64,000 nt of DNA from positions 37,071 to 101,070 of IMG/VR virus record IMGVR_UViG_3300035099_000181, one strand, 5' to 3'. This document shows positions 2,441 through 6,903 of the stretch, piece by piece. The DNA is from a virus. Position numbers and translations under genes: made by a program. The notes under the pieces were generated by a model that saw only the letters and a program-made list of their open reading frames with translations, was not told where the DNA came from and searched no databases. Within the stretch, counting starts at the first letter, position 1, and each line of letters starts with the position of its first letter.

Positions 2441-3148
2441 ATGGATCGGGAAGAACTTGAGAGAATAGTAAGAGAGGCGCGACAAATCGGGCATACGCCC
2501 GATCTAAATGGCGCCGACCTGTGCGGCATCAACCTGCGCGGCATCGACTTGAGCGATGCTAACTTAAACGGCGCCGATTTCTACGGCGCCAATTTAAATG
2601 GCACTGATTTAACCAACGCCGACCTGTGCGGCGCCGACCTCAATGGAGTCGATTTGCGGGAAGCCGACCTGGTAGGTGCCAGGTTGGTCGATGCCGATTT
2701 GCGGGAGGCCAATTTGATAGGCGCCGACTTAAGCGCCGCTGATTTGCACTGGGGCAAATTAAGCGGCAGCTGTCTGCGCGAGGCCGATTTCCACGGCGCC
2801 TGTTTAAATGGCGCCGATTTGAGCGGCGCTAACTTGATGGGCGCCAATTTAACAGATGCCAATTTAACAGATGCCAATTTAACAGGCGCCGACTTGAGCG
2901 GCGCCATAACGGATCAGCATATCTGGTCCGTAGACGGGATTGGCTCCGCCAGGCGGCGGACAACGTATTGGCTTGAGGCAGACCGTATATACTGCGGCTG
3001 CCAAACTTATACTCTGGCCGAATTCAGGGCCAGAGTTGGTCAGGAATACCCTGACCTATCAAGTATTTATCGTCGTCAGTACGAGGCGGCCGTGGCGTAT
3101 TTCGAGACGCTGGCCACAATCGCGAGGGGAACGTCCCAAAAATTCTAA
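2441..3148 (+). CDS. Pentapeptide-repeat protein
   Basis: Many A(D/N)Lxx repeats (ADLNG, ANLTD, ADLSG) plus a short C-terminal domain. Confidence 0.92.
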   Translation: MDREELERIVREARQIGHTPDLNGADLCGINLRGIDLSDANLNGADFYGANLNGTDLTNADLCGADLNGVDLREADLVGARLVDADLREANLIGADLSAADLHWGKLSGSCLREADFHGACLNGADLSGANLMGANLTDANLTDANLTGADLSGAITDQHIWSVDGIGSARRRTTYWLEADRIYCGCQTYTLAEFRARVGQEYPDLSSIYRRQYEAAVAYFETLATIARGTSQKF

Positions 3149-3179: not shown

Positions 3180-3500
3180 ATGAAGATTAAAATTCAAACC
3201 AGGAAAGAGATATCATCTTCCGGCGTGGAAGGACGCCGAATCATGGGGGTGTCGGCACTCAGGAGGAAAGAGTTGCCGACACTTTATCTCAACCAGAAAC
3301 CCTCGGCGTACCTCTGGGAGGACCCGGGGTACCTTCAGGTCGACAGGGACTGGATTTGTGTAGATGATTTCTTGGAAGAAGCCCGCTTCCAAGAAATCGT
3401 AGAATTTCTTCGCGCTTGCGGCGAGCGGCTGCACCAGATCAATCGTGAGCTGAAAGCAAAGCGAGCGGTCTGGACCGGGGATGAAACATTTGTGATCTGA
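3180..3500 (+). CDS. Hypothetical protein
   Basis: GGAGGAG RBS before ATG 3180; MKIKIQTRKE... Confidence 0.6.
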   Translation: MKIKIQTRKEISSSGVEGRRIMGVSALRRKELPTLYLNQKPSAYLWEDPGYLQVDRDWICVDDFLEEARFQEIVEFLRACGERLHQINRELKAKRAVWTGDETFVI

Positions 3501-3635
3501 TGCCCGATGGGCAGAAGGAAAGGAGGTGAGACAATGAGCAAAAAGCCCGCGAAGGGCAATTCTTGAATTCACCGTAGGGCAGGACCGAGAATCCTGCCAC
3601 TCGGCGAACCCAAGAAAAAAGGAAGATCAATCGTT

Positions 3636-6218
3636 ATGAAGCTAATAAAGAAGGGGGACAAGTTTGTTGCCGTGTCCACCTACGCTGAAAAAGACATCCC
3701 AAAAGGGGCGGGGTTCCGCTGGGATCCCGCTAATAGATTTTGGTGGACGAGCGACCTGGCCAAGGCTAACAGCCTAGCCCAGTTCGCCGACGACAATGTG
3801 AGAGCCGAGCTGGAGGCTGCCAAGCGGGAGCGCAAGGCTTCCATTGAAGCATCCAGAGCGAAGGATGCTGGCATCCAAATTCCCGCACCAGATGGTCTCG
3901 CGTATTTACCATTCCAGAAGGCCGGAGTCGCGTATGCTATCGAACACCAAACGACTCTCATGGCCGACGAGATGGGGCTTGGAAAGACCATCCAGGCTAT
4001 CGGAGTCATAAATTCCCTGCCTGAGATCAGATCCGTCCTGGTCATCTGCCCTGCCTCCCTAAAAATCAATTGGAAAAGGGAGTTGGACAAATGGCTCATT
4101 AGACAGCTTTGCGTCGAGATCGCCAACATCGGGAGCTTCCCGTCTTCAGATATCGTGGTGATTAACTACGATATTTTGGCCAAGCACGCCTCAGCAATTC
4201 ACGCCCGGAAGTGGGATCTTCTTGTAATAGATGAGGCTCATTATTGTTTTCCGGAAAATACAAAAGTTAGTACGTCAGAAGGCGAGATTTCTATATCTCA
4301 AATAGTCAACAATAGGATAGACGTGTTAGTTAAGTCTTATAATTTATCTAATAGTGCAATAGAATGGAAACGAATAACGCACTTTCACAAGCACCCTCAA
4401 TATGGGGAACTTGTGAAAATTGTTCACGAGAAAGGAGAATTGATTTGCACAAAAGATCATCAGCTTTGGACTGGGGCTCAATATGAGGAAGCCTCGAAGA
4501 GTTGTGGAAAGAATTTGCAAATATTGCAAGAAACCTTTTCTCCAAATACCTACAGAGTATTCAATACGGACTGCTCCCATAAAATCACTGATCCCAAATC
4601 TTCCGTCATGCCACAAGATAGATCTTGCAATCCCAGAACGAAAGTTAGCAATAGAAATAGACGGGCGATTGCATTCAGTTGCCCGAATGGAGAAATTGGA
4701 TCAAAAGAAGACGGAAGTCTTAAAAGTTCTCGGGTGGTCCGTGTTGAGGTTCTCAAACGAGGAGGTTCTGAACAATCTGAAATTAGTGGTGGAGAAAATT
4801 ATGTTTACTGCTTAAGCATCCAAGATAACGAAAACTTTTTTGCGGATGGGGTATTAGTATCCAACTGCAAAAATCCCAAGGCCCAAAGAACGCAAAATAT
4901 CTTGGGCAAGTGGGATCGGGACCCAGCCAAGGCCATTCCAGCTATCCAAGCCAAACGGAAGCTGTTCCTGTCCGGGACATTCATCACAAATGGCCGTCCT
5001 ATCGAGCTTTGGCCCGTCATCCGCTCGATCCAGGCAGACGGGCTGAAGATGTCATGGGAGCAATACGTTACACGGTATTGCAATGCCCGCCGGAATCGCT
5101 ACGGATGGGATGTAAGCGGAGCGAGCAATCTAGAGGAATTGCAGGAGAAGCTCCGAGCCTCCGTAATGGTCAGACGCTTGAAAAAAGATGTCCTGACTGA
5201 ACTTCCACCCAAGCGGCGGCAAGTGATAGAGCTGCCAGTTAACGGCGTGACTTCAGTTATTCTGGAGCAAAAGGCTTGGGCCGCGCAGGAGGGCAACCTT
5301 CTGAGACTCAAAGCCGCTGTCGAGCTGGCGAAGGCGTCAGAAGACGAGGGCGAGTATGAAGCGGCCGTCAAAGCACTCCGGGGAGGCACAGGAGCTGCGT
5401 TTACGGAGATGTCCGTCCTGCGTCACAAGACGGCACTCGCGAAAGTTCCCATGGTCATCGAGCACATCCAGGAAGCCCTTGAGGCATCCGGCAAAGTGGT
5501 CCTGTTTTGCCATCACAAAGATGTCGCGGCCAAGGTCGCGGCGGAGTTCGACGGGACTTGCGTGACAGTGACCGGTGACGACAAGATCGCCGAGCGGCAG
5601 GCCTGCGTCGACAAGTTCCAAGCGGACCCCAAGGTCCAGCTATTTGTTGGGACGATAGGCGCGGCTGGCCTAGGCATAACTCTGACGGCCTCTGCCCATG
5701 TTGTATTTGCAGAATTGGACTGGGTGCCCGGCAACGTGACCCAGGCCGAGGACAGGCTTCACAGGATCGGGCAAGCAGGGAGCATCTTGGTACAGCACCT
5801 AGTTCTGGAGGGCAGTCTTGACGCGACAATGGCCAAGACCCTGATTGCTAAGCAAGACAATATCGACCGGGCATTGGACAGAGAGTTTGCGGAGCAAGAG
5901 AAGTCCGAGCCTGTGCTGCCTATCGCCACCTCCGATCTTCCCTCGCGCAAGACCGTGGAGCGGGAGGCGAAGGACATGTCCGAGAAGCAGATCAGCGCTA
6001 TTCACAAAGCACTCGGTTTGCTGGCTGGGCGGTGCGACGGGGCGAGGAAGAAGGACGAGATGGGATTTGACCGGCTTGACACACTGATAGGGCGCAATCT
6101 GGCCTACGCCGACAAGTTGACAGCGAAGCAGGCCGCGCTCGGGAGGCGAATCCTACTCAAGTATCACAAACAGCTTCCTGAGGAGGTAGCAACTGCTTGC
6201 AAAAATCCAACAATATGA
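3636..6218 (+). CDS. SNF2/HARP-like SF2 helicase containing an intein
   Basis: ADEMGLGKT (motif I), VICPASL, DEAH (motif II), LSGT, GLGITLT, QAEDRLHRIGQ (motif VI). Confidence 0.92.
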   Translation: MKLIKKGDKFVAVSTYAEKDIPKGAGFRWDPANRFWWTSDLAKANSLAQFADDNVRAELEAAKRERKASIEASRAKDAGIQIPAPDGLAYLPFQKAGVAYAIEHQTTLMADEMGLGKTIQAIGVINSLPEIRSVLVICPASLKINWKRELDKWLIRQLCVEIANIGSFPSSDIVVINYDILAKHASAIHARKWDLLVIDEAHYCFPENTKVSTSEGEISISQIVNNRIDVLVKSYNLSNSAIEWKRITHFHKHPQYGELVKIVHEKGELICTKDHQLWTGAQYEEASKSCGKNLQILQETFSPNTYRVFNTDCSHKITDPKSSVMPQDRSCNPRTKVSNRNRRAIAFSCPNGEIGSKEDGSLKSSRVVRVEVLKRGGSEQSEISGGENYVYCLSIQDNENFFADGVLVSNCKNPKAQRTQNILGKWDRDPAKAIPAIQAKRKLFLSGTFITNGRPIELWPVIRSIQADGLKMSWEQYVTRYCNARRNRYGWDVSGASNLEELQEKLRASVMVRRLKKDVLTELPPKRRQVIELPVNGVTSVILEQKAWAAQEGNLLRLKAAVELAKASEDEGEYEAAVKALRGGTGAAFTEMSVLRHKTALAKVPMVIEHIQEALEASGKVVLFCHHKDVAAKVAAEFDGTCVTVTGDDKIAERQACVDKFQADPKVQLFVGTIGAAGLGITLTASAHVVFAELDWVPGNVTQAEDRLHRIGQAGSILVQHLVLEGSLDATMAKTLIAKQDNIDRALDREFAEQEKSEPVLPIATSDLPSRKTVEREAKDMSEKQISAIHKALGLLAGRCDGARKKDEMGFDRLDTLIGRNLAYADKLTAKQAALGRRILLKYHKQLPEEVATACKNPTI
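4245..4865 (+). mobile_element. Intein (207 aa) inserted just after the DEAH Walker B motif
   Basis: Starts CFPENTKV (block A), CTKDHQLW (block B TxxH), VYCLSIQDNENFFADGVLVSN/C (blocks F/G, +1 Cys); removal restores DEAHY-CKNPKAQRT; AT-richer than its flanks. Confidence 0.9.
4483..4815 (+). CDS. Vsr/DUF559-like PD-(D/E)xK endonuclease overprinted in the +1 frame inside the intein
   Basis: KIDLAIPERKLAIEIDGRLH...DQKKTEVLKVLGWSVLRFSNEEV matches the DUF559/Vsr pattern (D-x8-EIDG-x2-H; D..K...L...GW.VLRF). Confidence 0.75.
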   Translation: MRKPRRVVERICKYCKKPFLQIPTEYSIRTAPIKSLIPNLPSCHKIDLAIPERKLAIEIDGRLHSVARMEKLDQKKTEVLKVLGWSVLRFSNEEVLNNLKLVVEKIMFTA

Positions 6219-6288
6219 ATGTTGGGCAAGGAGTTTATATCGTTCATCTGACCCTCACGAATGTATAAAAGTATGGGGAAAATTAACT

Positions 6289-6903
6289 ATGAATACTTTG
6301 TTTCAAGAAAAACCGCAAGTAGTAAAATCTATACAAAATAGTGATAGAGATGTTTTGGCAGCAATAAGACAATTATATCTAAACAACAAAAACTTTGATT
6401 TAGACCCTTGTTATTCTGTTGGCAAGTTTTATGAGGATTTAGAAAGACCATTCCATAAATTAGATAAAATCCCGCAAGATGATGAAGTTATTCAAAATGA
6501 TATTATGAATGGGCTACCATATTCGGCAAATACAATGGAAAGTATTGTATTTGACCCACCTTTTATGTTTAGACCACACGGGCAAGCAAAAAATAACATA
6601 ATGGCCAAGAGATTTATGATGTTTGATAGTTGGGCGGAACTTGAAAGTATGTACAAAAAATCTCTTGAGCAATTTTATATTGTTCTAAAAAAGGGTGGAA
6701 TAGTTGCATTCAAATGCCAAGATTATACTGATAGCAGGACTACGCTTACTCATTGTTTTGTTCATAATTGGGCATTAGAACGGGGATTTAGAGTAGAGGA
6801 TTTGTTTATTGTGGCTTTTAAGGGTGGCAGAATTTGGAATAGCAAGCTCACACAAAAACACGCAAGAAAATACCATTCTTACTGGTTAGTGTTGAAAAAA
6901 TAA
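6289..6903 (+). CDS. Putative amino-(N6-adenine/N4-cytosine) DNA methyltransferase
   Basis: LDPCYSVG (motif I-like) and IVFDPPF (DPPY-like catalytic motif); visibly AT-rich. Confidence 0.7.
   Translation: MNTLFQEKPQVVKSIQNSDRDVLAAIRQLYLNNKNFDLDPCYSVGKFYEDLERPFHKLDKIPQDDEVIQNDIMNGLPYSANTMESIVFDPPFMFRPHGQAKNNIMAKRFMMFDSWAELESMYKKSLEQFYIVLKKGGIVAFKCQDYTDSRTTLTHCFVHNWALERGFRVEDLFIVAFKGGRIWNSKLTQKHARKYHSYWLVLKK

Follow-up and report, generated by a model that had tools for sequence, protein, structure and literature searches.

A phage helicase intein with a nuclease gene overprinted in its +1 frame, probably a homing element that has lost its DNA-binding module

Endonucleases encoded in inteins but outside the intein reading frame, including antisense ones, are cited as known since Gorbalenya (1998), in Synechocystis dnaX. 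In the cyanobacterial dnaX intein a LAGLIDADG gene lies in the +2 frame and selection is frame-dependent (Phillips, DeSimone & Gogarten, bioRxiv 10.64898/2026.09.14.751524), while actinobacteriophage inteins carry LAGLIDADG and Vsr-like genes in antisense and endonuclease VII-like genes in frame 3 (bioRxiv 10.1101/2025.01.02.630785); the latter study found Vsr-like endonucleases reported elsewhere only with split inteins and predicted that inteins of this sort are under-counted. Vsr-like endonuclease genes lie between the halves of split inteins (Dassa et al. 2009, PMC2677866), and in I-Bth0305I the nuclease domains dimerize and account for most target specificity (Taylor et al. 2011, PMC3239194). 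In the phage ShiLan, an in-frame, non-splicing insert in a methylase gene hides an HNH endonuclease that lies out of frame (Arsenault et al. 2025, PMC11855218). The present study concerns an intein in an SNF2-family helicase gene of a virus known from IMG/VR record IMGVR_UViG_3300035099_000181, a 101-kb entry with direct terminal repeats, of which the right-hand 64 kb (64,000 nucleotides, the window) was analyzed. We consider it very probable that this is a phage helicase intein on which a nuclease gene is overprinted in the +1 frame, and that in this copy the DNA-binding module of the nuclease has been deleted. An initial annotation, made from the sequence alone, had set the locus against the rule that intein homing endonucleases are in-frame domains, mostly LAGLIDADG or HNH; the published out-of-frame cases mean that the layout has precedents.

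The host gene and its intein, all on the plus strand, are laid out as follows.

3636–6218, plus strand: SNF2-family helicase gene encoding an 860-residue precursor that includes the intein (Pfam SNF2-rel_dom, 6e-30; Helicase_C, 1e-11; ResIII, 3e-6).
4245–4865, plus strand: predicted class-1 intein of 207 residues (621 bp), from Cys1 to Asn207 and followed by a +1 Cys.
4245–4529, plus strand: N-terminal splicing domain, intein residues 1–95, with block A and block B (TKDH).
4530–4718, plus strand: host-frame linker, intein residues 96–158, predicted to be disordered; the same DNA encodes the body of the +1 nuclease.
4719–4865, plus strand: C-terminal splicing region, blocks F and G, ending in VLVSN (TIGR01443 match and strands in the AlphaFold2 model).

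On its profile matches and its modeled structure, the segment at 4245–4865 is a class-1 intein with a HINT fold, located at helicase motif II. As the initial annotation had it, the 207-residue stretch is open in the helicase frame, and it matches Pfam Intein_splicing (PF14890; 8.6e-11, 42.3 bits, above the cut-off of 35.8), TIGR01445 intein_Nterm (1e-9) and TIGR01443 intein_Cterm (3e-5, residues 186–207). The first intein residue is a Cys (4245–4247), as is the first residue of the C-extein (4866–4868), and removal of the intein leaves the junction DEAHY/CKNPKAQR (the slash marking the splice point), which is compatible with helicase motif II. Across 75 related inteins C1, H72 and Asn207 are invariant and T69 is at least 90% conserved, block B of the window intein reading T69-K-D-H72. 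The penultimate residue is Ser rather than His, which had been remarked on as unusual; the residue is indeed there, but it is normal for the clade, in which the terminus VLVSN is common to many members (including L007–L011, L017, L021 and L025) and about 40% of the inteins (L006–L106) end in Ser-Asn rather than His-Asn, with a few ending in Gly-Asn. The Ser-Asn ending was therefore rejected as the mark of a defective intein, and the precursor probably splices despite it. In the AlphaFold2 model of the host-frame product the pLDDT (predicted local distance difference test score) is about 97 over residues 1–95 (a value stated for residues 1–90 as well), 48–63 over residues 96–158, which are without secondary structure, and again high at the C-terminal end, where residues 159–170 form a confident strand (pLDDT 97) and residues 186–207 are confident; the C-terminal strands span 159–170, 186–192, 197–200 and 203–206. 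The matches of this model in the PDB are the mini-inteins Ssp DnaE, Mtu RecA and Npu DnaE (probability 1.0); the initial annotation had already likened it to a mini-intein with a featureless linker. The G+C content of the intein is 0.37–0.43 against 0.55–0.60 in the surrounding helicase, in line with an acquired element.

The DNA of the linker is also the body of a second gene. The features of that gene in the +1 frame are these.

4483–4815, plus strand: open reading frame (ORF) of 110 residues in the +1 frame, a putative truncated homing endonuclease with a native start, half a zinc knuckle and a Vsr/DUF559-like core.
4516–4527, plus strand: CKYC as read in the +1 frame; it is the first zinc-ribbon knuckle, and its partner is missing (alignments with CxxC..(R)FCSxxC relatives).
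4618–4803, plus strand: stretch matching the DUF559 profile, ORF residues 46–107, with D47, E58, D60, H64, D73 and K76.

Many stops interrupt the +1 frame elsewhere in the intein, but none occurs between 4444 and 4812; an ATG lies at 4483, and a TAA at 4813–4815 closes the frame. Searches of both frames gave intein models in the host frame and, in the +1 frame, Pfam DUF559 (PF04480; E = 3.9e-13, 49.7 bits against a cut-off of 20.6), the match covering ORF residues 46–107 and only positions 46–105 of the 109 in the profile. The six residues D47, E58, D60, H64, D73 and K76 are all present and are invariant or at least 90% conserved in 117 relatives. The TIGR00632 vsr model is unmatched (13 bits against 97.85), and the product is thus not a Vsr repair enzyme. 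The AlphaFold2 model of the ORF (pLDDT 90.5, predicted template modeling score 0.81) has I-Bth0305I (3r3p) as its top PDB match in Foldseek (probability 1.0, template modeling scores 0.65/0.73), with further matches to PvuRts1I, Vsr (1cw0) and 3hrl. The 110-residue Vsr/DUF559-like nuclease with an ATG of its own, as first proposed, is well supported by these results, and every feature listed in the initial annotation lies at the coordinates it gave.

Alternative-frame ORFs of about 100 codons do arise by chance, and it might be argued that the +1 ORF is one of them with a spurious domain match. In 20,000 permutations of synonymous codons that left the intein protein unchanged, the longest +1 open run averaged 66 codons, and a run of at least 123 codons appeared in 0.4% of cases (P = 0.004). 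Against chance there also stand the Pfam match at 4e-13, the high-confidence nuclease fold and, as described below, the number of close relatives and the purifying selection on the +1 frame in them, so that this explanation is effectively refuted.

A HMMER search of 1.8 billion representative proteins returned 2,704 relatives of the nuclease, 252 of them at E < 1e-10. They are mostly 180–340 residues long, with the matching domain at the C terminus, and share a common plan. The N-terminal half has an MSKxKRS start, one to three zinc ribbons (CxxC...RFCSxxC) and an NPMxNP helical region; there follow a near-invariant GRTFLxRGGNGxLTxPQ and the nuclease core, which is marked by YKVD, LAIEVDGxxH, LDxRKTEVL and LGWxVLRFxNxEV. 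Built from 117 members, a family profile matches the DUF559 structure 3hrl at 7e-14 and I-Bth0305I (3r3p) at 6e-4. The whole virus record holds a single copy of the family.

For relatives whose loci were fetched, we asked whether another frame is open across the nuclease match. A first search of viral contigs gave two loci (L001 and L002) nested in a long host frame; two others (L004 and L005) were discarded as chance matches of the peptide CKYCKKP within a terminase-like gene. Among viral loci, 79 of the best 80 of 392 are nested, as are at least 12 genome loci (the closest relatives among the matches listed) and at least 59 of 80 metagenome loci examined, the genome and metagenome counts being lower bounds; this makes about 150 loci in all, counted per collection and not deduplicated across collections. 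Host frames of 550 to more than 2,750 codons enclose the nuclease, which without exception lies +1 to them, whereas none of 68 more distant DUF559 matches from the genome set, taken as a control, is nested in the +1 frame. For a large phage intein family, with hundreds of loci, the two-frame layout is the rule.

The host-frame stretch across the nested nucleases runs from DE/CF, DEAH/CF or DExHx/CF to ...[HS]N/[CS] and measures 265–500 residues, the boundaries having been set by regular expression and four of them adjusted by hand before the conservation alignment; of 75 such stretches, 73 are recognized by Pfam Intein_splicing. The inteins occur in ResIII/DEAD and SNF2 helicases, helicase–methylase fusions, a DnaX-like clamp loader and giant SNF2-containing proteins. 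All these hosts are P-loop NTPases, and the insertion lies directly after the acidic residues of Walker-B/motif II. The family (L006–L106) occupies at least three registers at one helicase motif (DE/C, DEAH/C and DExHx/C) and, in addition, the Walker-B site of the DnaX-like clamp loader. In most loci the nuclease ATG falls at about intein residue 77–90, just past block B, with a conserved N terminus of the type MSKxKRS..C.YC behind it, and the nuclease stop lies 3–26 codons upstream of the final Asn of the intein. The ATG at 4483 overlaps host codons Y80/E81, a position shared with L008 and L009.

Canonical inteins have in-frame endonucleases, and the window comes from a metagenome-assembled virus record; the endonuclease might then truly be in frame, with the offset owed to sequencing or assembly indels or to recent compensating frameshifts. 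Such an artefact would have to recur with an identical +1 offset in all of those roughly 150 independently assembled loci, in which the nuclease has a start and a stop of its own. The host frame past the nuclease start, including the C-terminal strand, is moreover a confident part of the HINT fold, and selection switches cleanly between frames. We regard this explanation as extremely improbable.

The switch is seen in seven gap-free pairs of relatives with 80–94% DNA identity, analyzed by the Nei–Gojobori method; the ratios of nonsynonymous to synonymous substitution rates (dN/dS) of overlapping frames are not independent of one another and serve only for comparison between frames. In the N-terminal part of the intein, host-frame dN/dS is 0.09–0.21 (0.11–0.21 in the seven pairs) and the other frames are near 1. 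In the overlap, by contrast, the nuclease frame has values of 0.08–0.19 and the host frame values of 1.0–1.9, no better than the noncoding +2 frame. Sliding windows over three disjoint pairs place the change of frame at about intein codon 90, with host dN/dS of 1–5 and +1 dN/dS of 0.03–0.18 over the linker region and low dN in both frames near the C-terminal end. Stops tell of both frames being kept open: across the overlap in 82 unique loci the nuclease frame has none and the host frame 21 in 21,928 codons, whereas the third frame, for which composition predicts 1,324, contains 1,702. In the relatives, then, purifying selection in the overlap acts on the nuclease frame, and the host frame is stop-free but otherwise unconstrained; the disordered linker in the host-frame model of the window intein agrees with this. 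The dual-coded homing element envisaged in the initial annotation thus finds its support in the +1 nesting of the relatives and in purifying selection on the +1 frame only, and both the DUF559 match and conservation in related inteins were found.

One stretch carries conserved sequence in both frames.

4719–4815, plus strand: two-frame stretch in which both products are confidently modeled and family-conserved.

In the host frame these bases encode the first C-terminal strand of the intein, SRVVRVEVLKRG, and the start of block F, and in the +1 frame the conserved nuclease motif GWSVLRFSNEEV and the last helix; the pLDDT is 97 for host residues 159–170 and 94–97 for ORF residues 80–110. Over the shared bases the family consensus is RVxSVExLE in the host frame and LGWxVLRFxNxEV in the nuclease frame. 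It is conceivable, though we think it doubtful, that intein and nuclease form an obligately fused, co-evolved unit rather than a mini-intein with a lodger. If so, because GWxVLRFxNxE and RVxSVExLE occupy the same bases, neither gene could be lost or exchanged without breaking the 3′ part of the other, and the nuclease remnant in the window would have been kept either by being pinned in place by the intein or through continued work as a small, dimeric nuclease.

On the layout of starts and stops, separate initiation is favored over frameshifting as the way in which the nuclease would be made. Programmed +1 ribosomal frameshifting would yield an N-extein/N-intein/nuclease fusion with no initiation of its own, and a product of that shape exists in a database protein of 344 residues (P0007), which reads from the extein (..ADE/CFPYGT..) through blocks A and B and continues directly with the zinc-ribbon and nuclease sequence, all in one frame, and ends at the normal stop of the nuclease. 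The family-wide enrichment of Shine-Dalgarno sequences at the nuclease ATG, discussed below, is also modest, as frameshifting would allow. P0007, however, may owe its form to an indel or an assembly error, or may represent a frameshift mutant or a split arrangement. The ATG stands at the expected place in nearly every locus, followed by the conserved N-terminal peptide; most loci have +1 stops a few to about 30 codons ahead of it; a free-standing family member (L028) has the same N terminus; and no shared slippery motif was seen, although no systematic search for one was made. Frameshifting therefore keeps only a slim chance, and internal initiation is the reading followed here.

The window copy departs from the family plan at one point.

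4533–4540, plus strand: approximate junction of a putative internal deletion; compared with L007, about 465 bp are missing, a whole number of codons (two-frame alignments against L007, L017, L025 and others).

The closest full-size relative, L007, has 41% intein identity and the same register (DESHY/C ... VLVSN/CKNYKAAR); its intein has 362 residues and its open nuclease frame 289 codons, against 207 residues and 123 codons in the window. Alignment with the relatives in both frames leaves one internal gap of about 155 codons, which marks the window copy as a deletion derivative. Its +1 frame begins with MRKPRRVVERICKYCKKPF, the native family N terminus and first knuckle (compare MSKHKRSVARQCEYCGKPF in P0010), and passes from MRKPRR..CKYCKKPF directly to L-QIPTEYSIRT, the start of the nuclease core. 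Of the CxxC..(R)FCSxxC repeats of the relatives only ICKYCKKPF remains, and the second zinc knuckle, the NPMxNP helices and the GGNG motif are lacking; GGN is found in 76 of 82 relatives. Apart from the half-knuckle, the window ORF is accordingly without the DNA-binding module (zinc ribbons, helices, GGNG) that would give a homing enzyme its long target site. Its nuclease frame is the shortest, the next having 181 open codons. The lone CKYC had been read as a sign that part of the N terminus was deleted: a deletion of about 155 codons is indeed indicated, but it is internal, and the N terminus itself is native. A +2-frame ORF at 4364–4486, containing CENC, was considered as the lost knuckle joined by frameshifting and was rejected, since in the alignment the family N terminus starts at the ATG at 4483.

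What remains in the window keeps all the invariant residues of the core and scores 121.8 bits against a family hidden Markov model built without the window (rank 74 of 82). With the truncation the ORF has probably lost efficient homing, which is the least secure of our conclusions, and the window copy would represent a decay-phase stage of the homing cycle, a step toward a mini-intein. In a separate helicase intein of the family (L170, 2046–4493), the +1 nuclease is split by a stop into pieces of 125 and 77 residues while the 815-residue host frame is intact; judged from its frames, this is a second kind of endonuclease decay in which the host frame is kept.

These observations suggest the following course of events. 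A class-1 intein would have entered motif II (DEAHY/C) of a phage SNF2 helicase, as a member of a large phage clade sited directly after the Walker-B/DExH motif of P-loop NTPases. The homing endonuclease of this clade would be a separate +1 gene over the middle and C-terminal parts of the intein, not an in-frame domain, and its product an enzyme in which zinc ribbons and helices precede a Vsr/DUF559-like nuclease, a relative of I-Bth0305I. The host frame would be kept free of stops but otherwise evolve freely, giving a linker that is disordered and leaves with the intein on splicing. The nuclease, presumably made by internal initiation on the helicase mRNA, would cut intein-less alleles, and repair would copy in the whole element. 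In the lineage of the window, the loss of about 465 bp, a whole number of codons, would have removed the DNA-binding module with both frames left open, and the remainder would be a near-mini-intein, probably still splicing, together with a 110-residue nuclease-only ORF. The element as a whole may have originated when a free-standing endonuclease gene invaded a mini-intein.

Several observations weigh against this account. The Shine-Dalgarno sequence of the window ORF is weak (GGGG, 7 nt 5′ of the nuclease ATG), and a scan of 3400–6400 for sigma-70-like promoters found none. In the family, Shine-Dalgarno sequences precede 29% of nuclease starts against 16% of other ATGs, a modest enrichment. 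The core of the window nuclease is barely degraded, its sole departure at positions at least 90% conserved being H for Y at residue 44, and the ORF is still open over 123 codons of DNA with 39% G+C; either the deletion is recent, then, or the remnant is still useful. Finally, a search of viral contigs for close relatives of the window intein found none, the closest relative found has 59% nuclease identity, and a metagenome scan gave none above 54% among the matches listed; blastn of the helicase gene against INPHARED phages likewise gave no match. Without a close relative, the dN/dS evidence rests on the relatives and not on the truncated ORF of the window.

The condition of the core also bears on whether the 110-residue nuclease still works, either as a homodimer with enough specificity for homing or in a function for which the phage has taken it over. 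The invariant catalytic and structural residues are all retained, the core score lies inside the family range, the native ATG is in place, and 123 codons of AT-rich DNA have stayed without a stop. Because the nuclease domains of I-Bth0305I, through which it dimerizes, hold most of its specificity (PMC3239194), a nuclease-only protein need not be dead, which again tells against our account. On the other side, the whole N-terminal module is gone, including the widely shared GGN, the protein is much shorter than every intact member, its ribosome-binding signal is weak, and the same truncation occurs in no relative found, so that there is no sign of its persistence. A working remnant is accordingly a minor, if appreciable, possibility, and loss of efficient homing the reading that we prefer.

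Two related loci show the nuclease family in other settings. In L028 (559–4336), a free-standing family member of 315 residues lies just downstream of an SNF2 helicase gene, which fits an origin by invasion of a mini-intein; the helicase itself has a different intein, at the Walker-A site (DMG/CFSADT...ISGN/TGKS). L003 (2268–3260) is a close homologue of the window helicase and has no intein at motif II (DEIHMAKSS). It has an insert of about 200 codons just 5′ of the Walker-A sequence DEMGLGKT, across which the host frame is open and another frame encodes a 240-residue member of the nuclease family, without a visible intein signature; between DEMG and LGKT the frame is disrupted by eight additional bases, TGACCGGC. 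L003 may be a non-splicing insert like that of ShiLan, a broken gene or an assembly error.

The genes on either side of the helicase are of other kinds. Upstream, the window encodes a 235-residue pentapeptide-repeat protein (2441–3148; Pfam Pentapeptide, 2e-41). Directly downstream is an ORF of 204 residues (6289–6903) with a G+C content of 0.30–0.37 against 0.55–0.64 in its neighbors and an FDPPF motif, which matches no Pfam family at E ≤ 0.01 and may be a horizontally acquired methyltransferase-like gene.

Gene callers give only the helicase at such loci, and inteins of this type are consequently filed as mini-inteins or as inteins with “featureless” or decaying linkers. In the family of the window, what is read as the linker reflects a selected endonuclease gene in another frame. 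This bears on how often inteins are truly free of endonucleases, on how much overprinting phage genomes tolerate, and on the route by which endonucleases come to lie in inteins, which here would seem to be the invasion of a free-standing gene and not domain fusion. The window copy offers what may be a snapshot of decay, in which a deletion has preserved the frame and left the splicing parts and both frames intact. The practical uses lie in the annotation of phage genomes and in the mining of compact nucleases and inteins.

The systems nearest to this one share parts of its design. In the fractured genes of phages (PMC2677866), as here, a bipartite Vsr-like endonuclease, with N-terminal DNA-binding and C-terminal nuclease regions, sits inside an intein in a gene of DNA metabolism, and the 3′ end of the endonuclease gene overlaps the downstream intein part by 6–69 bp; the host gene and intein are there broken into two ORFs that require trans splicing, whereas the window intein is contiguous and read through. 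I-Bth0305I and the EDxHD family likewise combine an N-terminal DNA-binding region with a C-terminal Vsr-like nuclease, and I-Bth0305I is the best structural match of the +1 protein. It is, however, encoded by a group I intron and has NUMOD and helix-turn-helix motifs rather than zinc ribbons, while the window nuclease is nearer in sequence to DUF559 (3hrl, 7e-14) and is without any DNA-binding region. The ShiLan insert resembles the window element in that a host frame is open over an endonuclease gene of another frame, and differs from it in lacking splicing domains and in encoding an HNH nuclease, the window element being a true intein. Closest in kind are the published out-of-frame inteins. 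In them too the open intein frame yields an unstructured linker and the endonuclease comes from another frame, dN/dS is low where the endonuclease is read and high for the host, and they are thought to have arisen when a free-standing endonuclease gene invaded a mini-intein. They have been described in dnaX, polymerase, capsid, terminase and thymidylate synthase genes; the family of the window, in contrast, places a zinc-ribbon and DUF559/Vsr-like nuclease in the +1 frame of the same strand, at the Walker-B/DExH motif of helicases and clamp loaders. Literature searches (DUF559 with intein; intein with Vsr and phage) returned no same-strand +1 Vsr/DUF559 gene in contiguous Walker-B inteins. The concept of an out-of-frame intein endonuclease is thus already published, and what is new is its same-strand, +1, Vsr/DUF559 type.

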